64,000 bases of DNA from Alphaproteobacteria bacterium. Its GTDB lineage: Bacteria; Pseudomonadota; Alphaproteobacteria; SMXQ01. Of this stretch, positions 27,536-63,869 are shown one piece after another. The position numbers were made by a program, and so were the translations under genes. Position 1 is the first letter of the stretch, and the number at the start of each line of letters is the position of its first letter. The notes below the pieces were generated by a model. That model did not search any database, had not been told where the DNA came from, and was given only the letters and a program-made list of their open reading frames with translations. The DNA is taken from the NCBI GenBank assembly GCA_038145705.1, contig JAYQQF010000009.1, forward strand, positions 68,422 through 132,421. The letters are read 5' to 3'.

Positions 27536-27544
27536 AATCGCGCC

Positions 27545-28833: not shown

Positions 28834-29772
28834 ATGAAGATTTTCGTTACCGGGGGATGCGGGTACAAGGGCACGGTGCTGGTGCCGAAGCTCCTGCGCG
28901 ACGGTCATGAGGTCGAGGTCCTCGACACCCAGTGGTTCGGCAATTTCCTTCCGAAGCATGCGGCGCTGAAGGTGCGCAAGGGCAGCGTCCTCGATATCGA
29001 GCGCATCAACCTTGAAGGCTTTGATGCCATCATCCACCTGTCGTCGGTTGCCAACGATCCTTGCGGCGATCTCGACCCGAAACTCACGTGGGAGATCAGC
29101 GCGCTCGCGACCATGCAAATCGCCGACAAGGCGGTTCGCCAAGGGGTGAAGCAGTTCATCTATGCGTCGTCGGGCAGCGTTTACGGCGTCAAGGAGGAAG
29201 AGCAGGTCACCGAGGATCTCGAACTGCTCCCCATCTCCGAATACAACAAGACCAAGATGGTGGCGGAACGGGTGCTGCTGTCCTACGAGCCGCAGATGGC
29301 CATTCAAATCGTTCGACCGGCGACGGTCTGCGGGCTGTCGCCGCGCATGCGCCTCGATGTTTCGGTCAACATGCTGACCATGCAGGCGCTCGAGCGGGGG
29401 CAAATCACCGTGTTCGGCGGTGACCAGACGCGCCCCAACATCCACATGGACGACATCACCGACGTTTACCTGCATCTCCTCGGCAACCCGGAAATCCGCG
29501 GGGTTTACAACGCCGGCTTCGAAAATCTCTCGATCATGGAAATTGCCGAGATGGTGACGTCCTTCGTTCCGGCGAAGATCGTCAAGCAGGGATCGAACGA
29601 TCCGCGCTCCTATCGCGTCAATTCGGACAAGCTTCTTGCGACCGGTTTCACGCCGCGCAAGACGGTGCGCGACGCCATCGCCGAGATCGTCGCGGCCTAC
29701 AAGGCGGGCGATCTCAAGAACGAACCGCATTTCCACAATCTGAAGTGGATGCAGGAAAAGGTTTTGGGTTAG
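28834..29772 (+). CDS. NAD-dependent epimerase/dehydratase (extended SDR) family protein
   Basis: Motifs VTGGCGYKG and the catalytic YNKTK. RBS GGGAAGG. Confidence 0.75.
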   Translation: MKIFVTGGCGYKGTVLVPKLLRDGHEVEVLDTQWFGNFLPKHAALKVRKGSVLDIERINLEGFDAIIHLSSVANDPCGDLDPKLTWEISALATMQIADKAVRQGVKQFIYASSGSVYGVKEEEQVTEDLELLPISEYNKTKMVAERVLLSYEPQMAIQIVRPATVCGLSPRMRLDVSVNMLTMQALERGQITVFGGDQTRPNIHMDDITDVYLHLLGNPEIRGVYNAGFENLSIMEIAEMVTSFVPAKIVKQGSNDPRSYRVNSDKLLATGFTPRKTVRDAIAEIVAAYKAGDLKNEPHFHNLKWMQEKVLG

Positions 29773-29786
29773 GTGGAGTTGTAAAC

Positions 29787-30791
29787 TTGACGCAAGGAGC
29801 GCCGAAGGTTCTGGTTTTGGGCAGCAACTCGTTCTCCGGGGCGAGTTTCGTTGCCCACGCGCTCGCACGCGGCGCGGACGTGATCGGCGTCAGCCGTTCC
29901 CCGGAACCCAACGCTGTCTTCCTGCCTTACCGCTGGGGCGGGGGGCTCGACCGCTTCCGTTTCCGCGCCCTCGACATCAATCGGGACCTTGATGCGATCA
30001 TTTCCCTGACGACCGCGGAAAAGCCCGATTACTTCGTAAATTTTGCCGCCCAGAGCATGGTCGGCGAAAGCTGGGACCGGCCCGAGGACTGGTTTCGTAC
30101 CAATGCGGTTTCCACCGTCATGCTGCACAACAGGCTGCGCAAGGAATGCGGCTTCCTCAGGAAGTTCGTGCATGTGACGACGCCCGAGGTCTATGGCAGT
30201 ACCCAGGGTTTCATCGACGAGACCACGCCCTTCAACCCGAGCACGCCCTACGCAGCGTCGCGCGCGGCGGGCGACATGAGCCTCAAGACTTTCGTCGAGG
30301 CCTACGGGTTCCCGGCCGTTTCCACCCGCGCCGCCAATGTTTACGGGCCGGGCCAGCAGCTTTACCGGATCATTCCGCGCACGATCCTGTTCATCCGCAT
30401 CGGCCGGAAGCTGCAGTTGCAGGGTGGCGGTCTGTCGGAGCGTTCATTCATCCATATAGACGATGTCAGCGACGCGACCTGGCGCGTCATGGAGGATGGC
30501 CCGGCCGGCGAGGTCTATCACATCTCCACCAACGAGATCGTGACCATCCGCGCGCTGGTCGAGCGCATCTGCGCGTTGATGAAGGTTTCCTTCGACGAGG
30601 TGGTCGAGGTCGTCGGCGACCGTCTGGGCAAGGATTCGGCCTACAAGCTCGACAGCACGAAAATCCGCAAATCTCTGGGTTGGACCGACCGCATCGGTCT
30701 GGACGAAGGCCTCGGGCAATGCATCGACTGGGTCGACCGCAACCTCGATGTCCTCAAGACCCAGGAAATGAATTACATCCACAAGCCGTGA
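29787..30791 (+). CDS. NAD-dependent epimerase/dehydratase (sugar-nucleotide 4,6-dehydratase-like) family protein
   Basis: Extended SDR fold (LVLGSNSFSGASF...TPYAASRAAGD). The start is uncertain: TTG at 29787 with a GGTGGAG RBS, or GTG at 29745, which overlaps the upstream gene. Confidence 0.65.
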   Translation: MTQGAPKVLVLGSNSFSGASFVAHALARGADVIGVSRSPEPNAVFLPYRWGGGLDRFRFRALDINRDLDAIISLTTAEKPDYFVNFAAQSMVGESWDRPEDWFRTNAVSTVMLHNRLRKECGFLRKFVHVTTPEVYGSTQGFIDETTPFNPSTPYAASRAAGDMSLKTFVEAYGFPAVSTRAANVYGPGQQLYRIIPRTILFIRIGRKLQLQGGGLSERSFIHIDDVSDATWRVMEDGPAGEVYHISTNEIVTIRALVERICALMKVSFDEVVEVVGDRLGKDSAYKLDSTKIRKSLGWTDRIGLDEGLGQCIDWVDRNLDVLKTQEMNYIHKP

Positions 30792-30813
30792 ACCGTTAGG
30801 GCACATAAAAACG

Positions 30814-32385
30814 ATGGCTGAACAAAAACCTTTCGATCGCCGTAGCCAGCCGCGCATGGCGCGCAACAAGATCCGCTCCATTGCGGAACTCGGCGAGATA
30901 TCTGCGCGCGCCAAGGCCGAGGGCCGCAAGGTCGTTCTCTGCCATGGCGTTTTCGACCTGTTGCACATGGGCCATGTCCGTCACCTTGAGGCCGCGCGCC
31001 GCGAAGGCCATGTCCTGTTCGTGACGCTGACCGCGGACAAGCATGTCAACAAGGGGCCCGGCCGGCCCGTCTTCACGGAACAGCTGCGCGCCGAGATGAT
31101 CGGATCGGTCGAATATGTCGATTGGGTCGGCATCAACGAAGCGCCCAGCGCGGAGCCCGTTCTTCAGGCCATCAAGCCCGATATCTACGTCAAGGGCAGC
31201 GACTACAAGAACCCGGGCGAGGACGTCACGGGCCGCATCGTTTCCGAACAGGAGGTTGTGGAGGCCCACGGCGGAAAGATCGTTTTCACCGACGACATCG
31301 TTTTTTCCTCGTCGGCGCTGATCAACCAGCATCTGGGGATTTACGAGCCGACGCTTCAGGCCTATCTCGGGCGGCTGCGCGACGAAGGCCGCCAGCAGCA
31401 GCTTCTCGATGCGATTGAGCGGCTCAGAGATCTCAAGGTCGTGGTCATCGGCGATGCCATTATCGACGAGTACCAGTACGTCCAGCCGATGGGCCGTTCG
31501 GCCAAGGAAAACATGATCGCGACCCTGTTCCAGGAACGCGAGGTCTTTGCCGGGGGCGTCTTCGCCGCGGCCAACCATGTCGCCGATTTCTGCGAGAACG
31601 TCACGGTCATCACCGGTTTCGGCGGCTACGACACCTACGAGGAAATGGCGCGCGGCAGCCTCAAGCCGAACATCTCGCTTCGGGCCGTATACCGGAAGGA
31701 AGCGCCGACCACGCGGAAGTGCCGCTTCATCGACCATGGCTATTCGATGCGCAAGATGTTCGAGGTCTACTTCATGGACGACAGGCCGTTGTCTGAAGAA
31801 AGCAGGCTGTCTCTAAACCGAGAGATTGAAAAAGCAATCACGGACGCCGATGTAGTCATTGTCACCGATTTCGGTCATGGCCTGCTTAGTGGCGACAGCA
31901 TCGCGCTTCTGGAGCAGAAATCGAAATTCCTCGCGGTGAATTCGCAGTCGAACGCCGGCAATCACGGCTACAACCTGGTCAGCAAATACAGGCGGGCGGA
32001 TTACGTGTGCGTCGACGGAACCGAGGCGCGGCTGGCGGTCCATGACAAATTTTCCGACATGGAAGATGTCGTAACAAAGCTTTTGCCCGGCCTGATTGAC
32101 TGCAACAACATCGTCGTCACGTTGGGCAAAAACGGCTGCTTCGCGTTCGACCGCAAGGCCGGCCTTTGCAAGGTTCCGGCCTTGACCAGTTCCATTGTCG
32201 ATACGGTCGGCGCGGGCGATGCGTTTTTCGCGCTCAGCGCGCCGATGGTAGCCGTCGGCCTGCCGATGGAACTGGTCGGCTTCTTCGGCAATGCGGCGGG
32301 CGCCATGAAGGTCGGCATCGTCGGCCACCGTTCCTCGGTCGAGAAAGTCCCGATGATCAAGTTCCTGACGGCGCTGCTGAAATAG
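30814..32385 (+). CDS. bifunctional heptose-1-phosphate nucleotidyltransferase / heptose-7-phosphate kinase-like protein (HldE-like, domains in reversed order)
   Basis: The N-terminus is an HxGH cytidylyltransferase-like domain (LCHGVFDLLHMGHVRHL...VTLTADKHVNKGPGRPV), as in HldE domain II. The C-terminus is a PfkB/ribokinase-family kinase (DTVGAGDAFF), as in HldE domain I. Confidence 0.65.
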   Translation: MAEQKPFDRRSQPRMARNKIRSIAELGEISARAKAEGRKVVLCHGVFDLLHMGHVRHLEAARREGHVLFVTLTADKHVNKGPGRPVFTEQLRAEMIGSVEYVDWVGINEAPSAEPVLQAIKPDIYVKGSDYKNPGEDVTGRIVSEQEVVEAHGGKIVFTDDIVFSSSALINQHLGIYEPTLQAYLGRLRDEGRQQQLLDAIERLRDLKVVVIGDAIIDEYQYVQPMGRSAKENMIATLFQEREVFAGGVFAAANHVADFCENVTVITGFGGYDTYEEMARGSLKPNISLRAVYRKEAPTTRKCRFIDHGYSMRKMFEVYFMDDRPLSEESRLSLNREIEKAITDADVVIVTDFGHGLLSGDSIALLEQKSKFLAVNSQSNAGNHGYNLVSKYRRADYVCVDGTEARLAVHDKFSDMEDVVTKLLPGLIDCNNIVVTLGKNGCFAFDRKAGLCKVPALTSSIVDTVGAGDAFFALSAPMVAVGLPMELVGFFGNAAGAMKVGIVGHRSSVEKVPMIKFLTALLK

Positions 32386-33357
32386 ATGATGGACGCAACC
32401 ACCCGCAAGGCGCTTTACCGTGCCATGAGCCGCATCCGCACCGTCGAGGAACGGATCGCGGACCTGTATCCCGAGCAGGAGATGCGCTGTCCGGTGCATC
32501 TGTGCATCGGGCAGGAGGCGGCGGAGGCCGGAACCGGTCTGGCGCTCGATCGGCGCGACTATGCGCTGTCGGGGCACCGGTCCCATGGCCATTACCTTGC
32601 CAAGGGCGGCGATCTCAAGGGCATGATGGCTGAAATCTACGGCAAGGCCACGGGATGCGCGGGCGGCAAGGGCGGCTCCATGCACCTTGTCGATCTCGAT
32701 GCCGGGTTCCTCGGCGCCGTGCCCATCGTCGGCAGCACCATTCCCATCGCCGTCGGCACCGCCTTCAGTTCGAAAATGAAGGGCGAGGACCGGGTGACCA
32801 TGGTCTTCTTCGGCGACGGCGCGACGGAGGCGGGCGTGTTTCACGAAAGCCTCAACTTCGCCGCCCTGCATGCTCTGCCCATCGTCTTCGTCTGCGAAAA
32901 CAACCTCTATTCCGTGTATTCGCCGATGGGCGTGCGCCAGCCTGACGGGCGTTCCATCGCCGGGATTGCCGCGGCCCATGGTGTCGCGACCCAAACGGGC
33001 GACGGCAATGATGCCGAGGCGGTCTTCACGCTCGCCAGCAAAGCAGTGGATGCTGCCCGGCGCGGACAGGGGCCGGTTTTCATCGAGCTTTCCACCTATC
33101 GCTGGCGCGAGCATTGCGGACCCAATTTCGACAATCACATCGGCTATCGCACCGAGGCCGAGTACGAGGAATGGCGGCAGCGAGATCCGCTGGCGCTCTA
33201 CCGCGCCCGGCTGATTGCCGACGGCGCCGCCACGGGCGCGGAACTCGCCGCCATCGATGCGGAACTCGCCGCCGAAATGGAGGACGCCGTAACGTTCGCG
33301 AAGTCCTCCCCGTTCCCGCCGCGCGAGAGCGCCGGCCAGCACATCTACGCTGAGTGA
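32386..33357 (+). CDS. thiamine-diphosphate-dependent dehydrogenase E1 component, alpha subunit (PDH/acetoin-DH E1-alpha-like)
   Basis: ThDP-binding motif GDGATEAG...NN and E1-alpha-like length and pattern. Confidence 0.8.
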   Translation: MMDATTRKALYRAMSRIRTVEERIADLYPEQEMRCPVHLCIGQEAAEAGTGLALDRRDYALSGHRSHGHYLAKGGDLKGMMAEIYGKATGCAGGKGGSMHLVDLDAGFLGAVPIVGSTIPIAVGTAFSSKMKGEDRVTMVFFGDGATEAGVFHESLNFAALHALPIVFVCENNLYSVYSPMGVRQPDGRSIAGIAAAHGVATQTGDGNDAEAVFTLASKAVDAARRGQGPVFIELSTYRWREHCGPNFDNHIGYRTEAEYEEWRQRDPLALYRARLIADGAATGAELAAIDAELAAEMEDAVTFAKSSPFPPRESAGQHIYAE

Positions 33358-33367
33358 GGGCCGCGCC

Positions 33368-34426
33368 GTGACCAGACAGATCAAGTTTTTCGAAGCGCTG
33401 CGCGAAGGCCTTGACCAGTGCATGGGGGCCGATGCCTCCGTCTACGTGATGGGCCTCGGCGTGCCCGATCCGGGCGGAATCTTCGGTTCGACCAAGGGGC
33501 TTGTGGAAAAATACGGGGCATCCCGGGTGCTCGACATGCCGCTCGCCGAAAACACCATGACAGGCGTTGCCATCGGTTCGGCGCTGACGGGACTGCGGCC
33601 GGTGCTGACCCACCAGCGCGTCGATTTTGCCATCCTGTCGATGGAGCAGCTCGTCAACCAGGCGGCCAAGTGGCACTACATGTTCGACGGGCGCATGCGC
33701 GTGCCGCTGGTCGTGCGCATGATCATCGGGCGCGGCTGGGGGCAGGGCCCGCAGCATTCCCAGAGCCTGCAGGCGATGTTCGCCCAGGTGCCGGGCCTCA
33801 AGGTGGTAATGCCGACCACGGCGTATGACGCCAAGGGTCTGCTGATCGCCGCCATCGAGGACGATAACCCGGTGGTCATGCTCGAGCACCGCTGGCTTTA
33901 CGGCATCGCCGACGATGTCCCCGAAGAGGCCTATCGGGTTCCGCTCGGCAAGGCCAAGATCATGCGCGAGGGCGGCGACGTCACCATCGTCGGGCTGTCC
34001 TACATGAGCCTGGAAAGCCTGCGCGCGGCAGATATTCTGAAGGGCTACGGCATTTCCGCCGAGGTCATCGACCTTCGTTCGCTGCGTCCCCTCGATGAAG
34101 CGACGATCCTGGCGTCGTTGCGCAAGACGGGCCGTCTTGTCGTCACCGATACGGCGCACGGGCCTTTCGGGGCGACGTCGGAGATCATGGCGCTCGCGGC
34201 GGAAAAGGCATTCGGCGCCCTCAAGGCGGCGCCGTCGCGGGTCTGCCTGCCCGATCATCCAGCACCGACCAGTCCGGCGCTTGCCGACGATTTCTATCCG
34301 CGCGCCGGCCACATCGCCGCCGCGGTGCTGCGCCAGTTGGGCCGCGAACCGGATGCCGCGCTGTTTGCGCCGCCCGCGGGCCGCCGCCTCGACCAGCCCG
34401 ATTCATCGTTTCAGGGGCCATTCTGA
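33368..34426 (+). CDS. E1 component beta subunit (transketolase-like pyrimidine-binding domain plus C-terminal domain)
   Basis: E1-beta pattern (MPLAENTMTGVAIG...RVPLVVR...VVMLEH...VTIVGLS). GTG start. Confidence 0.8.
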   Translation: MTRQIKFFEALREGLDQCMGADASVYVMGLGVPDPGGIFGSTKGLVEKYGASRVLDMPLAENTMTGVAIGSALTGLRPVLTHQRVDFAILSMEQLVNQAAKWHYMFDGRMRVPLVVRMIIGRGWGQGPQHSQSLQAMFAQVPGLKVVMPTTAYDAKGLLIAAIEDDNPVVMLEHRWLYGIADDVPEEAYRVPLGKAKIMREGGDVTIVGLSYMSLESLRAADILKGYGISAEVIDLRSLRPLDEATILASLRKTGRLVVTDTAHGPFGATSEIMALAAEKAFGALKAAPSRVCLPDHPAPTSPALADDFYPRAGHIAAAVLRQLGREPDAALFAPPAGRRLDQPDSSFQGPF

Positions 34427-35619
34427 TGAGTGAATTGCTTTCCAGCCTGTCGACGTCGCTCGGTACCGCTTGCGCAGTCTGTGGTGGGCCCACGGAGTCG
34501 ACCCTTGAACTGCCCGGGTTGCCTCTGACCGATACCTTCACGCGGACGCCGGTCGACAATCCCGTGAGCGGCATCGACCAGACGTTCAGGTTCTGCGAGG
34601 CCTGCGGGCACGGCCAGTTGGGGCATCAGGTCGCGCCCGAGGTGCTTTACGGCAGCAATTACTGTTTCCGCACATCGGCAAGCCCGACGGCGCGAAAGGG
34701 TACCGATTTCTTCATGTCGCTGCTGGACGAGGTAGCGGCAGGACGCCAGTTTCGCTCGGCCATCGATCTTGGCTGCAACGATCTTTTCCTTCTTGATCGT
34801 GTCGGCGACCGTGCCGCATTGCGCACAGGCGTCGATCCGATCTGGAAGGGGCGCGAGCATGAAATGGATGGCCAGCCCATCCGCGTGATCGGCGCCCCCA
34901 TCGAGGACGTGGATCTTTCCGTGCTGGACCAGAAGCCGGACCTCGTGATGTGCCGCCACACGCTCGAACACATCGCGCGTCCGCGCGATGTCGTTGCGGG
35001 ACTGCTGGCGGGCGCGGCTGACGATGCCATTTTCGTTTTCGAGGTTCCGGGCATCGAGGCTCTGGTCAACCGCTGTCGTTTCGACCAGGTGTTTCACCAG
35101 CATCTCCAGTATTTTTCGATGCGGTCGTTTCTGAAAATGCTGGAAGGCCTTGGCGCCAGGGCCATCGCGGTGAAGTCGCACTATCACGACTGGGGCGCCT
35201 TCGCGGTCGCGTTCGCCAAGGGTGGCGATGGTGGCGCGGCGCCCCTGCTGGATGCCCCGGACGGGGAGAAGATGTCTTCTCGGCTGAAGGTTTTCCGCTC
35301 GCAGATGGCTGCGAACGCGGAATTGATACGATTGATCGATGGACCGGCCTTCGGTTACGGCGCCGCGCAGATGTTGCCGGTGCTCGCCTATCACATGGGC
35401 ACGGATCTCGGGTTTCTCGACGCGGTGATCGATGACGATCCGGAAAAGGAAGGCGTATTCTACTGGAACCTGCCGGTCAGCATCCGGCCGCTCGCAGCGG
35501 TGGGAAGCCTCGATGCCGCGACGGTCCTGATTACGGCGGTCGACAGCGCGCAGCCCATTTTGCGCCGTCTTCTCGAAAGGCGGCCCCGTCACATCATTCA
35601 TCCCTTCAACATGATTTAA
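34426..35619 (+). CDS. C-methyltransferase-family protein (N-terminal zinc ribbon, SAM methyltransferase, C-terminal C-MT domain; TylC3/NDP-hexose C-methyltransferase-like)
   Basis: CAVCG...CEACGHG zinc-binding pairs, a methyltransferase core (IDLGCNDLF) and a long C-terminal domain, as in sugar C-methyltransferases. Confidence 0.6.
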   Translation: MSELLSSLSTSLGTACAVCGGPTESTLELPGLPLTDTFTRTPVDNPVSGIDQTFRFCEACGHGQLGHQVAPEVLYGSNYCFRTSASPTARKGTDFFMSLLDEVAAGRQFRSAIDLGCNDLFLLDRVGDRAALRTGVDPIWKGREHEMDGQPIRVIGAPIEDVDLSVLDQKPDLVMCRHTLEHIARPRDVVAGLLAGAADDAIFVFEVPGIEALVNRCRFDQVFHQHLQYFSMRSFLKMLEGLGARAIAVKSHYHDWGAFAVAFAKGGDGGAAPLLDAPDGEKMSSRLKVFRSQMAANAELIRLIDGPAFGYGAAQMLPVLAYHMGTDLGFLDAVIDDDPEKEGVFYWNLPVSIRPLAAVGSLDAATVLITAVDSAQPILRRLLERRPRHIIHPFNMI

Positions 35620-35640
35620 ATCGGAAGCAGGTCGCAACAG

Positions 35641-36330: not shown

Positions 36331-36353
36331 GAACTGGCGCGGGGTATCGAATC

Positions 36354-37133: not shown

Positions 37134-37164
37134 TCAGGGCCAGTAATCAGGGCAGGAACCCAAT

Positions 37165-38882: not shown

Positions 38883-38893
38883 AAGTCAGGGAA

Positions 38894-41453: not shown

Positions 41454-41474
41454 TTCGACTGGGACCCTGCTCCG

Positions 41475-53744: not shown

Positions 53745-53745
53745 A

Positions 53746-56396: not shown

Positions 56397-56416
56397 ATGC
56401 AAGAGACATCAATACA

Positions 56417-57592
56417 GTGAAAACACTTCTTGTCGGCACCAGCTTCAGTGCGGCGCCCGTTTACGCAGCCCTCAAGAGAAAAGGGCATCATGTTGCCGTT
56501 TGTGGCGGCATCCCGGGTGATCCCTGCCATCAGTACGCGGACGCATCCATCCACATCGATTATTCCTCACGCGAGGATCTTTTGGCGGCAGTAAAGAGCG
56601 GGGGGTACGACTTCATCGTGCCGACCTGCAATGATACATCGTACATGTCGACCGCGTGGGTCGCGGCCCAACTCGGCTATCCCGGATTCGATTCATTTCG
56701 AACGACCGAAATCCTGCATAACAAACCGCTGTTTCGCGAATTCGCGCTGGGAGTGGGGCTTCCGGTTCCCGCCGCGTATAGGGTTGTCTCCGCCAGCACG
56801 GATGTGGCGGGCAAAGTTCGCTTCCCCGTCCTGGTAAAGCCGTCCGACAGTTTCAGCGGCCGGGGCGTGACCAAGGTCGGGCGACCAGATGAACTAGCGC
56901 TAGCCATCGACGCGGCTTTGGCGGTATCGCACGATGGCAATGCCGTTGTTGAGGACTTTATCGAAGGAACCTTGCACAGCCACTCGGCCTTCATCGTCGA
57001 TCAAAAGATCATTCTCGATTTTTTTGTCGATGAATACTGTACGGTTTACCCCTACCAGGTGAATTGCTCCAATCACCCGTCCGGGCTGGCTGACGACCTG
57101 CGGCGCCAGACTCGCGACGTTATAACGAAGATGATTGTTGCCCTCGGACTATCCGATGGCCTGCTCCATACCCAGTTCATCGCGCAGGACGACAGGATCC
57201 AGATCATTGAGTGTATGCGCCGCGCGCCAGGCGACCTCTACGGACAATTTGTCGGCGCTTCGACCGGGATTGATTACGCCGATTTATATGTGCGCCCCTT
57301 CGTGGGCGAGAAAATTCCGACGGATATTGTCGTCCAGAGCCCAAAACCGATGGCGCGCCACACCATCAGTGTCGATACACCCCAAATCGTCGCAGATTTC
57401 ACCGTTACCGGACCAGCGAAGTCTGTACGCATCATTCCCCTCAAGGAAAGCGGCGAATTATTGGGCGTTGCTCCCTTCGACAAGCTGGCAATCGTTTTTG
57501 CCGAATTCGAAACGATGGATGATATGCTGAACTTGGCGCCCTTTTTCGATCGCTACATTGTCATCGAGCCACTGGACATCCAATGCCGATAA
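56417..57592 (+). CDS. ATP-grasp domain protein (carboxylate-amine ligase)
   Basis: ATP-grasp core (FPVLVKPSDSFSGRGV...VVEDFIEG). GTG start. Confidence 0.7.
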   Translation: MKTLLVGTSFSAAPVYAALKRKGHHVAVCGGIPGDPCHQYADASIHIDYSSREDLLAAVKSGGYDFIVPTCNDTSYMSTAWVAAQLGYPGFDSFRTTEILHNKPLFREFALGVGLPVPAAYRVVSASTDVAGKVRFPVLVKPSDSFSGRGVTKVGRPDELALAIDAALAVSHDGNAVVEDFIEGTLHSHSAFIVDQKIILDFFVDEYCTVYPYQVNCSNHPSGLADDLRRQTRDVITKMIVALGLSDGLLHTQFIAQDDRIQIIECMRRAPGDLYGQFVGASTGIDYADLYVRPFVGEKIPTDIVVQSPKPMARHTISVDTPQIVADFTVTGPAKSVRIIPLKESGELLGVAPFDKLAIVFAEFETMDDMLNLAPFFDRYIVIEPLDIQCR

Positions 57593-58767
57593 TACAGCCC
57601 CCGACACCATTATCGCTCGCGGTCAAGGGCGGACCACGCAAGCTGCGGGTTGCGTTTCTGGGCGGGGGTATAGATTCCGCAGTCGGACAGGTTCATCAGA
57701 TCGCGATCGGCATGGATCAAAGATTCGACTTGGTCGCGGGCTGTTTCAGCCGCGAGATGGAAATCAATCAGTCGAGCGGCGTTGCCTATGGCGTTGATCC
57801 GGATCATGTATACCCTTCGCTCGAAGACCTGATTGCTGCCGAGGCCAAATCAATTGATGCGTTCGTGGTCGTCACGCCGACCGATCAGCATCTGGACCAT
57901 GTGCTCCGCTGCGTAACGGCGGGCATTCCTGTGATCTGCGAAAAGGCCTTGGCACTGGACGATGCCGAAGCGATGAAAATCAAAGAAGCGCTGGATCGCC
58001 ACAACGGCTACTTGGCGGTGACATACAATTATCTTGGATATCCGATGTTGCGCGAACTGAAGGATATCATCGCACGGGGCCAGCTTGGGGCGATCCATCA
58101 GGTGCATGTTGAAATGCCGCAGGAGGGCTTCAGCAAGGTCCGGATTCAAGACGGGAACCCTATCGTTCCGCAGGACTGGAGATTGCATGACGGAAACGTC
58201 CCGACGGTATCGCTCGATCTCGGTGTTCATTTGCACATTATCACCAAATTCCTGACCGATGCCGTTCCATTGGAAACGGTCGCTACGGCGAGTAGCTTTG
58301 GTAACTTTGACAATATCGTCGATAACGTAATTGCGACGGTTCGCTACAGCGGCGACATGGTTACCAGCATCTGGTACGGAAAGGTCGCGTTGGGGTGCCG
58401 AAATGGCTTGAAAGTCAGAGTCTTCGGTGAAGCGGGTGCGGCAGAGTGGTGCCAGGAATATCCCGAAGACCTCCTACTCAGTGACCGTTACGGTCGGCGC
58501 TTCCGGCTGGACCGTGGGCATCCGGATGTGCGCGTGTCTAACGCTGCTCGTTATACTCGTTTCAAGGCGGGGCATCCCACGGGGTTCATTGAGGCGTTCG
58601 CGAACCTTTATGTCGATATAGCCGACCACCTTCTGCGCTTTCATGAAAGCAGGCAATGTGGCGAAACCGAATACGTTTACGGGATCGATGGCGCCATCGA
58701 GGGGTTGCGGCTACTGAGCGCGATTGCCCATTCTGCACGGGAAAAGCGCTGGGTACGCGTGTCCTGA
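57583..58767 (+). CDS. Gfo/Idh/MocA family oxidoreductase
   Basis: N-terminal NAD(P) Rossmann domain (RVAFLGGG) with EKA and a C-terminal alpha/beta domain. Confidence 0.8.
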   Translation: MPIIQPPTPLSLAVKGGPRKLRVAFLGGGIDSAVGQVHQIAIGMDQRFDLVAGCFSREMEINQSSGVAYGVDPDHVYPSLEDLIAAEAKSIDAFVVVTPTDQHLDHVLRCVTAGIPVICEKALALDDAEAMKIKEALDRHNGYLAVTYNYLGYPMLRELKDIIARGQLGAIHQVHVEMPQEGFSKVRIQDGNPIVPQDWRLHDGNVPTVSLDLGVHLHIITKFLTDAVPLETVATASSFGNFDNIVDNVIATVRYSGDMVTSIWYGKVALGCRNGLKVRVFGEAGAAEWCQEYPEDLLLSDRYGRRFRLDRGHPDVRVSNAARYTRFKAGHPTGFIEAFANLYVDIADHLLRFHESRQCGETEYVYGIDGAIEGLRLLSAIAHSAREKRWVRVS

Positions 58768-58921
58768 CCGGCTGCGGCCGATGCTGGAACGAGCGTGCAG
58801 GCCGGCCTTCGGCGCTTGACAGGCTGCCGCCAATATTCTCCACAGGGTCTCGTCGTAGAGATGGGGAACGACGCATCTCGTGCGGCGGCGATTCATAAAT
58901 CAACTTATGCGGTACGGTGTA

Positions 58922-60082
58922 ATGAACAATTTCTATAGCTATAATCCCACCAAGATTCTTTTCGGTAAGGGCATGATTGCGCGAATCGGTGCCGAGCTTC
59001 GCGACGTTTCCAAGATACTGCTGGTCTACGGCGGCGGATCGATCAAGCGGAACGGGGTTTATGATCAGGTTCGGTCCGCGTTGAAGGACTGGAAGGTCGT
59101 CGAATTCGGCGGCGTGGAACCCAACCCTGAATACGAGACCTGCGTCTCGGCCATAAAATTCTCTCGTGCGGAAGGGGTCGACTTCGTTCTAGCCGCCGGC
59201 GGAGGTTCGACGATTGATGCGGCGAAGTTCATCGCCTTGGCCTATGCCGCCGACATCGAAGATTCGTGGCGAATCGTCACCGGCGAGGCGGCGGTGCCTG
59301 CCAAAGTGCTGCCGGTCGGTTGCATCCAGACGCTGCCCGCCAGCGGGGCGGAAATCAACAATGCGTTGGTTCTGAGCCGCAGGTCGATCCGGCGCAAGCT
59401 TTCGTTCAATACCATCGCCCTGTATCCTCGCTTCAGCGTGCTCGATCCCGAGGCAACCATGACCCTGTCGCGTCACCAGACGGCCTTGGGCATGGCCGAT
59501 ATTTTCATGCATGTGCTGGAACAATACATGACCTATCCGGCGGGCGCGCTGCTGCAGGACCGTCAGTCGGAGGCGATACTGTCAACGCTTGTCGAAGTCG
59601 CTCAGCCCCTGCTAGAAAGACTCGATGATTACGATCTGCGCGCGACGGTAGCGTGGTGCGCTGCGCAAACCTCGAATGGCACCATCAATCGTGGCGTGCC
59701 CACCGATTGGGCGACGCATGCAATCGGTCACGAGTTGACGGCGCTTTACGATATTCCCCATGCCCAGACACTCGTCTTGGTCGTCGGCGGAATGTATCTG
59801 CATCAAATCGAACGGAAAAAAGCCAAGCTGGCCCAGTATGGCCGCCGGGTCTGGGGTCTTTCCGGTTCAGATGGCGAAGTTGCCCGTGCGGCAATCGACT
59901 GCACCGTGGCGTTTTTCGATGCGATGGGATTGCCGACGCGATTCTCCGCTTTGGGCATGGATATCGCTGAGGTGGCGCCGGCGGTCCGGCGCCAGTTCGA
60001 GCAAAGCGGATTCCAGCCTATCGGCGAGCACAAGGATATCGACCTGAACGCCATAGATTCAATTCTGGCACTCTGCGCCTAG
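58922..60082 (+). CDS. iron-containing (group III) alcohol dehydrogenase
   Basis: Fe-ADH motifs (GGGS.ID.AK, GHELTALYDIPH). ATG at 58922. Confidence 0.8.
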   Translation: MNNFYSYNPTKILFGKGMIARIGAELRDVSKILLVYGGGSIKRNGVYDQVRSALKDWKVVEFGGVEPNPEYETCVSAIKFSRAEGVDFVLAAGGGSTIDAAKFIALAYAADIEDSWRIVTGEAAVPAKVLPVGCIQTLPASGAEINNALVLSRRSIRRKLSFNTIALYPRFSVLDPEATMTLSRHQTALGMADIFMHVLEQYMTYPAGALLQDRQSEAILSTLVEVAQPLLERLDDYDLRATVAWCAAQTSNGTINRGVPTDWATHAIGHELTALYDIPHAQTLVLVVGGMYLHQIERKKAKLAQYGRRVWGLSGSDGEVARAAIDCTVAFFDAMGLPTRFSALGMDIAEVAPAVRRQFEQSGFQPIGEHKDIDLNAIDSILALCA

Positions 60083-60092
60083 CGGGTCGATC

Positions 60093-61355
60093 GTGGTTCC
60101 ACTTGTTACGCGACAGGGCTTGCCGATTTCGGACCTCAGGTCACTGGTCGGCGAACGCAGAGTCCTGGTCTGGGGAGTCGGCGATATGGCGCTTGATGTC
60201 GTCACCAGCCTGACGAAGGCGGGGTTGCGACCGCGGGCGTTGTTGCACAGCGATATGTCGGTGGTCGGCAGTGACCGCCATGGATTGCCCGTATGGTCGG
60301 CGTCCAGTGTCCTGTCCCCGGCGCAGTCCGATAGAAATTTCATTGTTCTGGCCGCGCCAGCCTATCGGCGAGAGGGTGAGGCTGCCTGCGTCGAAGCCGG
60401 GCTGCGCAAGAGCGCGGACTTTCTTTCGTTCCTGTCCATCCCGCGTCCGCAGGCGATCGTCGAAGTGGCCAACGATTGTTCGTTGCAGTGTCTTGGATGT
60501 CTGCAATCCACCGTCGGTGGTCCGTCTGCGTCCCAGCGGATGTCCGCCGATACGTTTTCGAAGGTGGCAGCCAAATTGGATGCGGACTTGCCCTTGCTCA
60601 GTCATATCGAATTGGCGCTTTGGGGCGAACCGACGCGAAATCCGGATTTGCCTGCAATCATCCGCTTGGCGCAGGCTGTCGCGCCCTGCACGGTGGCGAC
60701 CGGACTGCCGGCCGATGTGTCCTTGGAGTCCGTGGTCAGGGCTGAGCCCGCGCGGCTCGACATCACGGCAATGGGCTTCGGCGAAACCTACGAGGCGCGG
60801 GTGCCCGGCGGGAGCTGGCCTGCCTTCACCCGACAGCTTGCCGTCCTCCGCGAATTGATCGACGATAGCCGACCGTCCACGAGGTTTCAGGTCCGACTTT
60901 ACCGGTGGCGCAACGACCCCTCGGACCTGGTGGAGAAGTGGCGCGGTCTGCTCGGCGACTCGGGCATCCTGCTATCTCCGCAAACGCCCTATGTCATGCC
61001 CTATGACCAGACCCTGGCATATTGTGAAAGCGGGGCGTGGTCGGAGAAGGCTCTGAAGGCTGCGGAAATGCTGCCATGGCACCTGCAGCGCACACTGGAC
61101 GCCTGCCGGGTGGAGCGGGACCGTCCCTGCCTCTCGCAGCGGATTTTCCCGGTCATCAACGTCGATCTCTCGGTCGGGCTGTGCCACCTTTATGCTCAGC
61201 CGCAGGTGGCTGCAAATTTCCTATCAATATCCTGGGATAATTTGCTTCAAGCTCGGCATAAATCGGATTTTTGCCAGCGTTGCCAAAGGTTTGGATTGCA
61301 TAGGCTTGATCTGGATGTTATTAAAAATCAGTATGGTAATCTCCTTGATGTCTAA
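60093..61355 (+). CDS. radical SAM protein with an N-terminal NeuD/PglD-like Rossmann domain and a C-terminal Cys-rich tail (paralog 1)
   Basis: CSLQCLGC (CX3CX2C) about 125 aa from the N-terminus. N-terminal VLVWGVGDMALDV...NFIVLA. C-terminal CQRCQRFGLH. GTG start. Confidence 0.6.
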   Translation: MVPLVTRQGLPISDLRSLVGERRVLVWGVGDMALDVVTSLTKAGLRPRALLHSDMSVVGSDRHGLPVWSASSVLSPAQSDRNFIVLAAPAYRREGEAACVEAGLRKSADFLSFLSIPRPQAIVEVANDCSLQCLGCLQSTVGGPSASQRMSADTFSKVAAKLDADLPLLSHIELALWGEPTRNPDLPAIIRLAQAVAPCTVATGLPADVSLESVVRAEPARLDITAMGFGETYEARVPGGSWPAFTRQLAVLRELIDDSRPSTRFQVRLYRWRNDPSDLVEKWRGLLGDSGILLSPQTPYVMPYDQTLAYCESGAWSEKALKAAEMLPWHLQRTLDACRVERDRPCLSQRIFPVINVDLSVGLCHLYAQPQVAANFLSISWDNLLQARHKSDFCQRCQRFGLHRLDLDVIKNQYGNLLDV

Positions 61356-61375
61356 TTCTTTTCGGGAAGTGCGCG

Positions 61376-62674
61376 ATGAGTCCTGACAGCCGGGTCCTGA
61401 CCCGACCAGACGCGATGTCGACGATGGGGCGGGAGCAATTCAAGGCTCTCGTGGGCAATCGGAAGATCTTCATTTTCTCGGTGAATCTCGAAGGTGTCGG
61501 TTTCCTGCGCCGCTTTACCCGCATGGGGTTGGACGTCGGTGGCTTCATCGATTCCCGCCCGTTCAAGGACGGCAAGCAGCGCGGCAAGCCGGTGATCTCG
61601 CCGGACGAATTTTTTGCCGGCGAAAACCGCGATGTCTTCGTATTGATCACCGCGAAGCATCGGCAGACGCGGAAATGGGCGATCGACCTTTGCGAGTCCG
61701 CTGGGCTCGCAAAGGGGACCGGGTACATGTATTCGACCATGTTGTGCGATTACTTCCCGACCATCGAAGTCGCGGGCGTGTGCAATCTGCGCTGCATTTC
61801 CTGCAACATGGGGCAGCCCGATGCCAACAGGGGCAAGGGCGTAATGTCGGCGGAAAGATACCGCCAAGTCCTTGAGAAAATGAGTCAGGAAATACCCTTC
61901 CTGAATTCGGTTTATCTCTATTTGTGGGGTGAGCCCTTGCTGAACAAGGAGCTGCCCGAAATCGTTCGCATCACCCGCGAACTGGGCGCCGCATCCGAGA
62001 TTTCGTCCAATCTCGTCGATGGCGCCAGGCTCGAAGCTTTGATCGAAGCACAACCCGATGTGCTCGTGGCGCCCTGTTCGGGTGTCGGCGAAAATTTCGG
62101 CCTTGCCCGCACTGGCGGAACTTGGGACGAATACCGGGACAACCTTTACAAGCTGCGCGAATACCTGGATCGCCACAATGCGGAAACGGTGGTCCGCATC
62201 ACTTATCATATGTACAAGCACAATCTCGAGAAGGACTACGATACGGTCGAAAAGATCGCTAAGGAGCTGGGATACCAGTTCCTCCCCGTTCTGGCCCAGA
62301 TTTTCCCGGAAAAGGTGCTGCGCAACGTCATCAACGGGGAGGCCATTCCGGAAGAGATGCTGCGCGCCAACGAGATGTTGTATTTCCCGATCCATGAGCA
62401 GCTCGCCTATGCGCAGAGCGTCAAGGACAGAAACTGCTTCATGATGAAGGTCTTCCCCAGCATTCGTTGGGACGGTTCCGTCGTGCATTGCAGCAATCTG
62501 ATGAATCCGGTGCTGACGCGAAACTATCTGGACATCTCGCTCGACGACCTTCTCGACCAGCGCGGCGCCAATGGCTTCTGCAACTCGTGCATGGATCACG
62601 GAATGCATCGTTTCTTCGATGTGTCGGCTTCCGTGACGGTGAAAAACGGCCGCCGGGTGCCGCAACGCTCCTGA
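61376..62674 (+). CDS. radical SAM protein with an N-terminal NeuD/PglD-like Rossmann domain and a C-terminal Cys-rich tail (paralog 2)
   Basis: CNLRCISC (CX3CX2C), N-terminal KIFIFSVNLEGVGF...VFVLI and C-terminal CNSCMDHGMH. It is collinear with paralog 1 (LYLWGEPLLNKELPEI versus ELALWGEPTRNPDLPAI). Confidence 0.6.
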   Translation: MSPDSRVLTRPDAMSTMGREQFKALVGNRKIFIFSVNLEGVGFLRRFTRMGLDVGGFIDSRPFKDGKQRGKPVISPDEFFAGENRDVFVLITAKHRQTRKWAIDLCESAGLAKGTGYMYSTMLCDYFPTIEVAGVCNLRCISCNMGQPDANRGKGVMSAERYRQVLEKMSQEIPFLNSVYLYLWGEPLLNKELPEIVRITRELGAASEISSNLVDGARLEALIEAQPDVLVAPCSGVGENFGLARTGGTWDEYRDNLYKLREYLDRHNAETVVRITYHMYKHNLEKDYDTVEKIAKELGYQFLPVLAQIFPEKVLRNVINGEAIPEEMLRANEMLYFPIHEQLAYAQSVKDRNCFMMKVFPSIRWDGSVVHCSNLMNPVLTRNYLDISLDDLLDQRGANGFCNSCMDHGMHRFFDVSASVTVKNGRRVPQRS

Positions 62675-62759
62675 CGCGAAGGGCGCGCCAAGCTTCGGCG
62701 CCCCGGCGTTTGCCGGGGTATCATCAAGTTTTCGGCCGACACTGACCGCTGTTTCCGAT

Positions 62760-63869
62760 ATGAGCACAGATACCCTCAAATCCGTCCTGGCAAGTTTCGA
62801 CCAATGGCAGGCGTCTCCGTTGGAGGTGCGTTCGCATCTGGACGATGTGCTTCGCGGTAAACGCCGTTGCTACGTCCTTGGTCGGAATCACAACAGCGCT
62901 TTCATGGCCGAACGCTTGCCGGTCGCCGGGTTTCTGGACGACTTCGTGGAACCGGGCACCGTCTGGCACGGGTTGCCCGTGCTGCCTTGCAGCGACCTCC
63001 CCACCGGATCGGTCGTTATCAATGCCGTCCTCCTGCGCCGGCCCCATCAGGCTCTGGCGCGGCTGGCTTCCTTGCCGCAGCCTCCCATCGTCGTTCACTA
63101 CGCGGATTTCATGCGTCTGGATCCGGTTAAATTTGTGCCGCCGATCTTCGTGCAGGAGGCGCGGTCCGTCGTCGCCGACCGCGCCGATGCCTTCGCTGCG
63201 TTGGGAGACCGACTGGAAGACGAAGAGTCGCGCGAGGTCATGAAGGATGTCCTTTTGTATCGCCTGACCGGTGATCCCGCCTTTACCAGGGGATATCAGA
63301 TCCGGGACGAGGACGAATATTTTGACCTGCCGTTCGTCCTGCCTCAGGGACCGGTTTTCGTTGACGGCGGTGCCTATCGCGGTGAAACGACCGAATTGTT
63401 CTGCCGGCATTATCCCGATTACAGCTGTGTCCACCTGTTCGAGCCGAATGCCGGCTCTCTGGCGAAGGCAAAGTCGAGGCTCGGCAGCCTGGAACACATC
63501 CACTATTACAACAATGCCGTTGGCGATGTTCGTGCTCATGTTGCGTTCGACGACAGCGCGGAGAATGCATCGCGAATCACCGGAGAAGGCGGTGAGGGTA
63601 TCGAAGCAATGCCCATTGATGAATTGTCCGGCAAAGTCGATTTTATCAAGCTGGATGTCGAAGGCTATGAGACCAAAGCCCTGGTTGGTGCTCGGAGATC
63701 GATCTCTGACTTTCATCCGTCGCTTGCGATCTGCATCTACCATCGCATCACGGACTTTATCGACGTTCCAGGCGTGGTTCTCGCTATCCGTGACGATTAC
63801 CGCTTGTATATTCGCCACTACACCGAGGGTCTGGAAGAGACGGTCATGTATTTCGTGCCGCGGAATTGA
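62760..63869 (+). CDS. FkbM family methyltransferase
   Basis: Methyltransf_21 pattern (FVDGGAYRGETT...VDFIKLDVEGYE). Confidence 0.75.
   Translation: MSTDTLKSVLASFDQWQASPLEVRSHLDDVLRGKRRCYVLGRNHNSAFMAERLPVAGFLDDFVEPGTVWHGLPVLPCSDLPTGSVVINAVLLRRPHQALARLASLPQPPIVVHYADFMRLDPVKFVPPIFVQEARSVVADRADAFAALGDRLEDEESREVMKDVLLYRLTGDPAFTRGYQIRDEDEYFDLPFVLPQGPVFVDGGAYRGETTELFCRHYPDYSCVHLFEPNAGSLAKAKSRLGSLEHIHYYNNAVGDVRAHVAFDDSAENASRITGEGGEGIEAMPIDELSGKVDFIKLDVEGYETKALVGARRSISDFHPSLAICIYHRITDFIDVPGVVLAIRDDYRLYIRHYTEGLEETVMYFVPRN

Follow-up and report, generated by a model that had tools for sequence, protein, structure and literature searches.

A probable RfaH-controlled surface-glycan island that combines a heptose module with an amino-sugar module in an alphaproteobacterial genome

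A stretch of 64,000 nucleotides from an alphaproteobacterial assembly (GCA_038145705.1, contig JAYQQF010000009.1, positions 68,422 to 132,421 of the forward strand) was analyzed, with a focus on the dense gene array at 28834-63869, which probably encodes the synthesis of a surface glycan. The window denotes the whole 64-kb stretch, all positions are given in window coordinates, and the related loci or contigs that were fetched for comparison carry L-numbers. The open reading frames (ORFs) of the window were assigned to families by Pfam, NCBIfam, and PDB sequence searches, and the ORF listing together with these searches gave 31 plus-strand genes and one minus-strand gene in the interval. An earlier note on this DNA, prepared before any database search, had placed a dense array of about 33 plus-strand genes here; the array and its coordinates held, while the count had to be lowered. 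The first ATG of the island lies at 28834 and the stop codon of the last complete gene at 63869, which is also the end coordinate given in the earlier note. Intergenic gaps are mostly between -28 and 57 nt and ten gene pairs overlap or abut, a spacing that is operon-like. The sole minus-strand gene codes for a GmhB-like protein (45066-45713), in agreement with the view that only gmhB is reversed. A minus-strand ORF (40713-41375) that had been considered as the reversed gene was rejected for want of any family match, as was a plus-strand ORF overlapping gmhB (44889-45869), which is spurious and likewise matches no family.

The GC content amounts to 66% in the flanking housekeeping genes, 62% in 28834-40695, 56.5% in 40785-63869, and again 66% in the downstream mtnA. 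The upstream flank carries genes for aspartokinase, ptsP, rodZ, ispG, hisS, hemA, prfA, prmC, and clpB, and the downstream flank mtnA. Housekeeping genes at 66% GC on both sides, together with the drop inside, indicate a chromosomal gene island of approximately 36 kb that was probably acquired horizontally and whose right edge falls at the end coordinate of the earlier note. No tRNA genes or Rfam matches that could mark the island borders were found. Apart from RmlA and RmlB, every enzyme of the locus scores under the NCBIfam equivalog cutoffs, hence specific product names can be assigned to these two only, and the remaining proteins are referred to below by family or by closest relative.

The array is preceded by a putative control region. 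The intergenic stretch 27439-27597 (GC 41%), ahead of two regulator genes, contains a promoter-like site on the plus strand (27545-27574), a consensus match only and the single sigma-70-like match within 25-45 kb. The first regulator gene (27598-28239, plus strand) encodes a 213-aa protein with a winged helix-turn-helix (HTH) N-terminus and a Rossmann-like, CoA_binding_3-like C-terminus (weak Pfam matches to MarR_2, HTH_24, and CoA_binding_3). It overlaps by 4 nt with the gene for a 165-aa NusG paralogue (28236-28733, plus strand) that consists of an NGN and a KOW domain (Pfam NusG 1e-19, KOW 9.6e-5). The best NCBIfam model for this paralogue is RfaH (TIGR01955, 1.5e-34, 119.3 bits, vs. 64.8 for NusG, 74.8 for UpxY, and 58.2 for LoaP), and it aligns over its full length with Escherichia coli RfaH (34% identity over 154 aa, E 6e-23). 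In the 100-nt leader that follows, 36 nt before the first ATG of the array, lies an ops element, GGCGGTAGCGTG (28787-28798, plus strand), which is the single exact match to GGCGGTAGNNTG in the window; exact matches expected by chance are about 0.24 in 128 kb (whole window) and 2e-4 per 100-nt leader. The signature of an RfaH target, a non-template-strand GGCGGTAGnnTG within the operon leader, is thus present exactly at 28787-28798 on the plus strand. A homologue of the 213-aa regulator with 38% identity (L011, 6696-7259) likewise sits just before an ops element and the first enzyme gene of the array, so that another metagenome-assembled genome (MAG) has the same order of HTH gene, ops, and enzyme gene as the window. 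The winged-HTH/Rossmann protein, seen ahead of ops in two unrelated MAGs, may be a locus-specific regulator.

RfaH and ops are a classic control device of lipopolysaccharide (LPS) and capsule operons, and the presence of both an RfaH-like gene and an ops site upstream fits a surface-polysaccharide operon. The arrangement is shared with the RfaH/ops (JUMPStart) operons of Enterobacteria in having an NGN-KOW paralogue and, within the 5' leader, an exact 12-nt ops on the sense strand, and it differs from them in that the rfaH-like gene lies directly upstream of its own target and beside a small HTH gene, that the host is an alphaproteobacterium, and that the score falls under the NCBIfam RfaH cutoff. 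In the proposed scheme, transcription would start in the AT-rich region near 27.5 kb and run through the small regulator gene and the rfaH-like gene, after which the RfaH-like protein would be loaded on RNA polymerase at ops (28787-28798) and would permit read-through of the long array. Taken together, the leader and its neighbors provide strong circumstantial evidence that the array is subject to RfaH-type antitermination.

The first part of the array (28834-43522, plus gmhB) constitutes a putative heptose module. It opens with an extended short-chain dehydrogenase/reductase (SDR), here called SDR1 (28834-29772, plus strand; Pfam Epimerase), whose best PDB match is 6vo6 (1.8e-35), which we take to be Cj1427 of Campylobacter jejuni. 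The latter is a dehydrogenase that turns GDP-heptose into a 4-keto sugar (PMC10680097), and this resemblance makes SDR1 a candidate C4 oxidase of a nucleoside diphosphate (NDP) heptose. The second gene encodes an RmlB-like extended SDR, here DH2 (29787-30791, plus strand), related to dTDP-glucose 4,6-dehydratases (dTDP, deoxythymidine diphosphate; PDB 1e-41; NCBIfam 205 bits, cutoff 365). In DH2, TPE replaces TDE, YxxxR replaces YxxxK, and the glycine-rich loop is degenerate (GSNSFSG); within its clade, [ST][ST]PE is found in 118 of the top 150 family representatives and YxxxR is shared by the closest members. Homologues of the DH2 clade also occur in L009, L011, L062, and L081. The third gene (30814-32385, plus strand) encodes a 523-aa HldE-like fusion in reversed order, with the nucleotidyltransferase domain at residues 29-170 and the PfkB kinase domain at residues 201-505, and its HxGH (H51, G53, H54) and GAGD (G466-D469) motifs are invariant in 16 homologues. 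The kinase/nucleotidyltransferase fusion predicted from the letters alone is accordingly present with both domains and their motifs, though not in the HldE order. The GmhB-like heptose 1,7-bisphosphate phosphatase of the HAD-IIIA type mentioned above (NF006506 9e-50, 168.7 bits, cutoff 178) exceeds the cutoffs of TIGR01656 and TIGR01662, the models of the histidinol-phosphatase domain and of HAD-IIIA, and its gene was called independently on a 100%-identical contig (L090). A GmhA-like SIS-domain gene lies outside the island (18400-19020, plus strand; tblastn with the GmhA-like protein of L009, 33% identity, E 6e-28) and is a possible source of heptose 7-phosphate.

With GmhA-like genes as neighbors and GmhB in the locus, heptose is the best-supported substrate, by association. 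As in the GmhA-HldE-GmhB pathway to ADP-heptose, there are a PfkB kinase, a cytidylyltransferase-like domain with intact motifs, GmhB, and a GmhA-like neighbor, whereas the reversed domain order and scores far under the equivalog cutoffs set the window apart from it. The closest parallel for the subsequent steps is the GDP-heptose modification pathway of C. jejuni, which consists of the Cj1427 C4-dehydrogenase, a 4,6-dehydratase, and reductases (PMC10680097). The window shares the Cj1427-like SDR and a 4,6-dehydratase-like SDR with that pathway, but carries thiamine diphosphate (ThDP)-dependent carboligases and a C-methyltransferase instead of the epimerase/reductase set.

Two ThDP enzyme systems, as anticipated in the earlier note, were indeed recovered by the Pfam and NCBIfam searches. 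The first is a pair of E1 subunits, alpha (32386-33357, plus strand; Pfam E1_dh 6e-70) and beta (33368-34426, plus strand; Pfam Transket_pyr and Transketolase_C, near the subfamily cutoff), which keep the ThDP motif GDG...NN and score below the pyruvate dehydrogenase equivalog cutoffs; no E2, E3, or lipoyl domain was found in the locus genes by Pfam. The second is a split transketolase with N (37165-37953) and C (37950-38882) subunits, both on the plus strand and assigned by family searches. Between the two systems lie genes for a C-methyltransferase of the TcaB9/TylC3 type acting on NDP-sugars (34426-35619; Pfam Methyltransf_13, _14, and _23; PDB TcaB9 3e-21), a 229-aa class I S-adenosylmethionine (SAM) methyltransferase (35641-36330; Pfam), and a 259-aa classical SDR (36354-37133), the last two with homologues in L012 that are 63% and 79% identical, respectively. 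Further downstream follow a 276-aa classical SDR found by family searches (39865-40695), a 222-aa class I SAM methyltransferase that belongs to the conserved core of the module (40785-41453), and a Zn-dependent alcohol dehydrogenase (ADH; 42467-43522) whose gene comes directly after that of the 222-aa methyltransferase in L009, L011, and L012; all of these genes are on the plus strand. Two of the predicted tallies had to be corrected: in place of at least five methyltransferases there are four in the interval (starting at 34426, 35641, 40785, and 62760) with two more upstream (25580-27438), and in place of three SDRs there are five genes of the SDR superfamily.

The heptose module is widely conserved. 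Counted at E<1e-10, the reversed HldE has 7759 homologues and is found in at least 560 genome loci, all or nearly all of them in Alphaproteobacteria, with many Bradyrhizobium species, Magnetospirillum, Azospirillum, Skermanella, Terasakiella, and Magnetovibrio among the carriers; the best matches (about 70% identity) belong to Thalassospiraceae and Magnetovibrio MAGs, by which the uncultured host of the window is placed as probably Rhodospirillales-like. For counts of gene neighbors, 83 reversed-HldE loci were fetched, and 95 loci in all were compared for motifs. Beside the reversed HldE, SDR1 occurs in 75 of the 83 loci, the split transketolase in 53, the 222-aa methyltransferase and the GmhA-like SIS gene in 48 each, a DegT-type aminotransferase in 34, and E1 alpha/beta in 13. 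Transketolase or E1 genes are embedded among NDP-sugar-modifying genes, next to the Cj1427-like 4-oxidase, in 66/83 loci, and the association of the heptose genes with ThDP enzymes is common in Alphaproteobacteria, including cultivable ones. Both ThDP systems occur together only in the window and in a Magnetovibrio MAG locus (L012), where a block of ten genes is collinear with the window (reversed HldE, E1 alpha, E1 beta, C-methyltransferase, methyltransferase, SDR, transketolase N and C subunits, methyltransferase, and Zn-ADH; 56-79% identity). In every sequenced case compared, the DH2 clade stands in the context SDR1, (GmhA), DH2, reversed HldE, E1 alpha, and E1 beta, followed at some distance by the methyltransferase and Zn-ADH.

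Variation among close relatives was seen as well. A contig from a sister sample (L001, JGI Ga0606696_000009; region compared, 13614-13767) matches the window without a difference as far as the stop codon of E1 beta. A 47-nt spacer follows there, and the sequence resumes at window position 35618, the start of the next methyltransferase. These junctions imply that exactly the TcaB9-like C-methyltransferase gene (34426-35619) is absent from a co-occurring strain, and polymorphism of this kind, in which one decoration gene is either present or missing, is characteristic of surface antigens that are under diversifying selection. A variant of the module was also observed in Magnetospirillum sp. ME-1 (L007, CP015848, 2780437-2802008), a cultured and fully sequenced organism and as such a practical experimental system. 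The gene order there is SDR, reversed HldE, SDR, a 203-aa protein, an APH-type kinase, split transketolase, two DegT aminotransferases, two uncharacterized proteins, a radical-SAM enzyme, a NUDIX hydrolase, and a methyltransferase, and the module is preceded by an MsbA-like ABC gene and rhamnose-type genes.

Three classes of ThDP enzymes that branch keto sugars have been distinguished in a 2025 review: YerE-like enzymes, which are involved in branched LPS sugars, E1 alpha/beta enzymes of the alpha-KADH2 class, found in approximately 120 secondary-metabolite clusters (e.g., those of aldgamycin, avilamycin, paulomycin, and kibdelomycin), and split transketolases, of which 13 are predicted, all in Streptomyces, and which have been proposed for miharamycin and amipurimycin (PMC12247030). 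The window resembles the second and third classes in its lone E1 alpha/beta pair without E2/E3, its split transketolase, and its neighbors that could form NDP-keto-sugars, and it departs from them in that the known examples belong to secondary metabolism, while here both types share a Gram-negative surface-glycan locus and a heptose scaffold. In the pathway that we propose, GmhA, the reversed HldE, and GmhB would convert sedoheptulose 7-phosphate into NDP-heptose, from which the Cj1427-like SDR and/or the RmlB-like SDR would form a 4-keto intermediate. The ThDP carboligases would then add C2 branches, E1 alpha/beta an acetyl group from pyruvate and the split transketolase a hydroxyacetyl group, the TcaB9-like enzyme would C-methylate the sugar, and the SDRs and the Zn-ADH would reduce the branched sugar, which would also be methylated by the methyltransferases. 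The module would yield a branched sugar with at least nine carbons. In our estimate, the chance that an NDP-heptose is branched by the ThDP enzymes in this way approaches but does not reach one in two.

A competing explanation is that no nucleotide sugar is branched by the ThDP enzymes, the split transketolase merely supplying sedoheptulose 7-phosphate or another sugar phosphate, and E1 alpha/beta, along with the SDRs and ADHs, making or degrading a small acyloin or acyl donor. Transketolase forms sedoheptulose 7-phosphate in central metabolism (textbook knowledge), yet that precursor is already provided by the housekeeping pentose-phosphate pathway. Compared with E. coli TktA, the split transketolase keeps the cofactor and catalytic residues (ThDP, histidines) of a canonical enzyme and possibly the equivalents of the phosphate-binding R358 and R520 as well, where the alignment is ambiguous and unreliable; H461 and D469 of the acceptor site (TktA numbering) are, in contrast, replaced by G and L in 4/4 module transketolases (window, L007, L012, and L033), which points to an acceptor pocket unlike that of a canonical transketolase. 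A YqhD-like aldehyde reductase in the locus speaks for this explanation, whereas the E1 pair lacks E2/E3 just as in known sugar-branching systems, and the embedding of transketolase or E1 genes among NDP-sugar-modifying genes in 66/83 loci likewise speaks against it. We consider this explanation unlikely, and sugar branching is preferred over it, even though branching by split transketolases is still unproven and has never been shown biochemically (PMC12247030). A literature search found no paper describing the heptose-ThDP association. It is new for a surface-glycan locus of a Gram-negative bacterium to combine a reversed-HldE heptose pathway with a C-methyltransferase and with ThDP enzymes of both the E1 alpha/beta and the split-transketolase type.

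Bradyrhizose, an inositol-fused sugar of photosynthetic Bradyrhizobium, offers one lead to the kind of product. Its putative operon comprises 11 genes around a gene named 'gdh', with the pathway otherwise unknown (PMC4743980). The primers used to disrupt gdh in Bradyrhizobium ORS285, which has a bradyrhizose O-antigen, encode the peptides DAFLPYK(W) and DMSLRTYF (PMC4743980), and both match motifs specific to the DH2 clade, FLPY[KR]W and DMSL[KRQ][TS][FY] (at approximately 29919 and 30273). In the window, 384 nt separate the two motifs, and the fragments in that paper measured 300-400 bp (PMC4743980); none of the other genes in the 95 loci contains the motif pair, and neither does the true RmlB of the window. 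Among representative proteins, a 250-aa fragment carries the exact DMSLRTYF and is 65% identical to DH2. The likeness to the bradyrhizose operon thus comprises these two short gdh peptides at the expected spacing, the comparison being made on the peptides alone, and the locus in the window has many more genes.

The ten carbons of bradyrhizose form a bicyclic sugar, and ring closure onto C1 is possible from each of the hydroxyls 4, 5, and 9 (PMC9912281), which suggests a tertiary alcohol at C4, bonded to C9. Such a C4-C9 tertiary alcohol would be expected from ThDP-dependent C2 addition to a 4-keto-heptose with ring closure onto C7, and the carbon count could be explained by a C7 heptose, a two-carbon branch on C4 that is joined to C7 by ring closure, and one methyl group. 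The link to bradyrhizose, built on two peptides, is speculation. It is rather doubtful, on present evidence, that the heptose module represents a previously unrecognized alphaproteobacterial pathway of NDP-heptose C4 oxidation and ThDP-dependent C-branching with bradyrhizose as one possible product; if it does, sugars with at least nine carbons, either branched or fused to a carbocycle, would be expected as products.

The last part of the array (51425-63869) holds an amino-sugar and decoration module, encoded entirely on the plus strand. RmlB (51425-52435; NCBIfam 392.6 bits) and RmlA (52432-53295; 424.5 bits) pass their equivalog cutoffs of 365.1 and 360.65, respectively, and are followed by an FdtA-type 3,4-ketoisomerase (53295-53744; Pfam 6e-33) and a QdtB/DesV-like C3-aminotransferase (53746-54846) that matches PDB entry 2oga, presumably DesV, at 2e-107 and QdtB at 4e-97. 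The four enzymes suggest the synthesis of a dTDP-3-amino-3,6-dideoxyhexose, as had been predicted, the conclusion being partly demonstrated by the two equivalog matches and partly drawn from family resemblance. The absence of a canonical N-acetyltransferase was likewise borne out, since Pfam found no hexapeptide-repeat or GNAT acetyltransferase domain (FdtC/QdtC type) in any gene of the locus. Downstream of a glycosyltransferase gene of family GT61 there is instead a set of genes for an ATP-grasp ligase (56417-57592), a Gfo/Idh/MocA oxidoreductase (57583-58767), a YqhD-like Fe-ADH of the aldehyde reductase type (58922-60082; 4e-106), two radical-SAM paralogues with CxxxCxxC motifs (60186-61355 and 61376-62674), and an FkbM methyltransferase (62760-63869; Pfam). 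The Zn-ADH, Fe-ADH, oxidoreductase, ligase, and both radical-SAM proteins named in the earlier note were all found by Pfam, NCBIfam, or PDB searches. The two radical-SAM proteins share 28% identity with each other, have C-terminal Cys clusters, and show weak similarity to BtrN and SPASM enzymes.

None of the decoration genes from GT61 to FkbM occurs in the 83 heptose loci. In a metagenome scan with the second radical-SAM protein, one contig (L091) was recovered that carries the FdtA, aminotransferase, YqhD-like, and both radical-SAM genes side by side and the FkbM, Gfo, and ATP-grasp genes in divergent orientation; the set is 35-64% identical to that of the window and adjoins a gene for a 1589-aa multidomain glycosyltransferase. 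On another contig (L093), a radical-SAM gene lies next to aminotransferase and FdtA genes. This co-occurrence marks the decoration set as a functional unit that goes with the 3-amino sugar. The ATP-grasp ligase, the Gfo and YqhD-like enzymes, the two radical-SAM proteins, and the FkbM methyltransferase could supply and attach a non-acetyl N-acyl group or another decoration, and the most plausible function suggested by these families would be the ATP-dependent attachment of a non-acetyl N-acyl group with further modification. The module has RmlA, RmlB, an FdtA-family isomerase, and a QdtB/DesV-like aminotransferase in one overlapping run, as in the dTDP-Fuc3NAc and dTDP-Qui3NAc pathways, but differs from these in having the ATP-grasp/Gfo/YqhD-like/radical-SAM/FkbM set in place of an FdtC/QdtC-type acetyltransferase. 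A 3-amino-sugar pathway in which a radical-SAM/ATP-grasp set replaces the acetyltransferase is new.

Genes for assembly and export, all on the plus strand, lie mostly between the two modules. The glycosyltransferases of families GT4 (43580-44863, alternative start 43670; Pfam Glycos_transf_1 4e-33), GT2 (50437-51438), and GT61 (55014-56396; Pfam 4.9e-21, 75.8 bits, cutoff 27) are clear in the family searches, just as expected. Three further proteins (38894-39892, 45866-47029, and 47065-48501) gave no Pfam or PDB sequence match, and the first of them had no NCBIfam match either. The second of these, a 387-aa protein with a GT-B fold (45866-47029; AlphaFold2 pLDDT 90.5), belongs to an unannotated family with only 28 homologues, none of which has a Pfam domain. 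Its top Foldseek hit is the GT9 structure 3tov (E 7e-5, probability 1.0), followed by WaaC, WaaF, TagF, and NodZ, with TM-scores of just 0.33-0.42 and other GT-B families scoring alike. The first, a 332-aa protein (38894-39892), is a distant paralogue in the GT-B family (hhalign 95.6%, E 1.3e-8, 293 columns), and neither of the two matches Pfam Glyco_transf_9 at E<5. The "GT9-like" protein of the earlier note is thus a pair of distant paralogues with a GT-B fold whose best structural match, though not sequence match, is GT9. The third protein (47065-48501, 478 aa; AlphaFold2 pLDDT 88.8) is a divergent Wzx-type flippase of the MOP superfamily, with WzxE (9g9n) as its best fold match (TM 0.68/0.78, probability 1.00) and just 25 homologues, some annotated by JGI as O-antigen export; with no Pfam Polysacc_synt match even at E<5, the predicted Wzx-like flippase stands at the level of fold (WzxE TM 0.78) and not at that of Pfam or PDB sequence matches. 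The fused TMD-NBD ABC exporter (48551-50437) is MsbA/HepA/PglK-like, with scores that are similar against the three and all below the equivalog cutoffs (MsbA best, 299 bits, cutoff 602), in keeping with the MsbA-type exporter that had been anticipated. The only other polytopic membrane protein in the 64 kb is LPG_synthase_TM/flippase-like (41475-42470; Pfam 4e-21; TIGR00374 54.7, cutoff 43.2), with approximately 7-8 transmembrane segments.

None of these three polytopic proteins is a Wzy, a Wzz, or an initiating phosphoglycosyltransferase, whose absence from the window had been pointed out before, and the suggestion that an initiating transferase and polymerase might lie past the window end was not supported by the next 6.3 kb; Wzy, Wzz, WaaL, and a polytopic initiating transferase were all absent from the window and from these 6.3 kb. 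The locus has a Wzx-fold flippase in common with Wzx/Wzy-dependent O-antigen and capsule clusters and is unlike them in that Wzy, Wzz, and the initiating phosphoglycosyltransferase are missing from the window and may be elsewhere. The GT4, GT2, and GT61 enzymes and the two novel GT-B transferases would build an oligosaccharide that is attached to a lipid carrier, its passage across the inner membrane would fall to the Wzx-fold flippase, the PglK/MsbA-like ABC exporter, or both, and initiation, polymerization, and ligation would be encoded elsewhere; a lipid-linked oligosaccharide of this kind fits the gene content.

The same absences would be explained if the GT-B (GT9-like), GT4, and GT2 enzymes put the sugars directly on lipid A-core at the cytoplasmic face and the MsbA-like exporter flipped the product, in a lipooligosaccharide-type core extension that needs neither initiation on undecaprenyl phosphate nor Wzy, Wzz, or WaaL. 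The ABC protein does have MsbA as its best NCBIfam match at 299 bits, but this score is far below the cutoff of 602 and nearly equal to those against HepA and PglK. The heptosyltransferase family GT9 is the nearest in fold to the novel GT-B proteins, and E. coli RfaH/ops also controls core (waa) operons (textbook knowledge); against this, the locus has a Wzx-fold flippase at its center, the vicinity contains no genes for Kdo or lipid A, and related loci contain Wzm/Wzt-type ABC-2 transporters (L009) or giant polymerizing glycosyltransferases (L091), which are typical of polymers. A core extension is accordingly regarded as quite unlikely.

The lack of a polymerase or ligase would also be compatible with an island for O-glycosylation of a protein such as flagellin, pilin, or an S-layer protein. 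GT61 includes eukaryotic protein O-glycosyltransferases (textbook knowledge), and TPR-methyltransferase genes (TPR, tetratricopeptide repeat) occur in related loci. Some homologues of the 387-aa GT-B protein (P0163, P0168, and P0172) were observed to carry N-terminal TPR repeats, and several protein-glycosylating transferases have such a TPR-fused architecture. The window, however, encodes no flagellin, pilin, Maf, PglB, or PglL-type protein, the Wzx and ABC flippases indicate a lipid-linked intermediate directed to the periplasm, and RfaH/ops is typical of LPS and capsule operons, which leaves protein glycosylation with a slim chance. The genes of the window are compatible with an O-antigen, a capsule, a core extension, or a protein glycan.

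From the family and fold assignments, the gene order, the ops site, and the conservation of the modules across genomes, we infer the substrates, the order of steps, the product, the branching, and the N-acylation, and we assign a probability of roughly 0.7 to the overall reading as an RfaH-controlled surface-glycan island with heptose and amino-sugar modules. A single decorated surface glycan containing heptose and aminodeoxyhexose, as the earlier note had proposed, is the best reading in view of RfaH/ops, the flippase, the exporter, and four to five glycosyltransferases. Its stated counter-case, that the genes belong to several unrelated pathways, was not borne out, as the heptose module is collinear in other alphaproteobacterial glycan loci and the amino-sugar genes co-occur with the decoration set. 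Several observations nevertheless weigh against this reading, in addition to the missing polymerization and initiation genes. The promoter and terminator scans gave counts no higher than in shuffled sequence, the RfaH-like protein at 119.3 bits stays below the TIGR01955 cutoff of 144.5, and the antisense gmhB splits the plus-strand array between 44863 and 45866. On the enzymatic side, the assignment of heptose depends mainly on gene neighborhood, the reversed HldE scores 154 bits against NF008454 (cutoff 521) with a domain order opposite to that of HldE, and the activity of DH2 is uncertain given the loss of the TDE Asp and the Arg in place of the YxxxK lysine.

The enzyme inventory also invites comparison with a cluster of secondary metabolism whose product would be secreted and resemble an aminoglycoside or a nucleoside, since it is from actinomycete antibiotic pathways that E1 alpha/beta, split transketolase, and TcaB9-like, DesV-like, ATP-grasp, and twitch-like radical-SAM enzymes are best known. 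A check for an aminoglycoside cluster, raised in the earlier note, turned up no cyclitol synthase, and an aglycone synthase, polyketide synthase, nonribosomal peptide synthetase, or resistance gene is equally absent from the locus, while the Fe-ADH is YqhD-like and not DHQS-like. The RfaH/ops pair, Wzx, and four to five glycosyltransferases are present, and related modules occur in loci with O-antigen-type transporters and RmlABCD-type genes. A secondary-metabolite cluster is therefore considered extremely improbable. As a surface-glycan island, the locus is made of parts that each have relatives, and a polysaccharide cluster under RfaH/ops control is of a known kind; the combination is new, as are the unannotated GT-B family and the extremely divergent Wzx.

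Additional genes of possible interest lie around the island. The interval between clpB and the regulator (21825-27438) contains two nucleotide-sugar-type SDRs (21825-22784, plus strand; 22801-23805, minus strand) and two SAM methyltransferases (25580-26560 and 26557-27438), the four being interrupted by an M23 peptidase gene, and these four genes may belong to the glycan locus. Directly past the radical-SAM genes, in a segment known from L003 (11229-14415, approximately 120 nt to 3.3 kb past the window end), there are MtnA (472 bits, cutoff 271) and a bifunctional class II aldolase/SDR (1065 bits vs. a cutoff of 639, GC 66%), a pair that resembles methylthioribose/5-deoxyribose salvage. They were rejected as members of the locus, both being salvage-type equivalogs at the 66% GC of the host. 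A second FkbM methyltransferase is located 4.4 kb downstream. At the window start, a CysN-like GTPase of the sulfate adenylyltransferase subunit 1 type is encoded (741-2120, minus strand); L009 and similar heptose loci have sulfotransferase-like genes, thus sulfation of such glycans may occur in relatives.

Branched and higher-carbon sugars of surface glycans shape recognition by phages, hosts, and the immune system. The locus and its relatives suggest a common coupling of E1 alpha/beta and split transketolases to an uncharacterized reversed-HldE heptose pathway, which would extend over surface-glycan loci in hundreds of Alphaproteobacteria, among them Bradyrhizobium, Azospirillum, and Magnetospirillum, which are cultivable. 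They offer concrete enzymes for the still-unproven branching reaction of transketolases, new carboligases toward tertiary alcohols, and a gene-level hypothesis for sugars of the bradyrhizose type.

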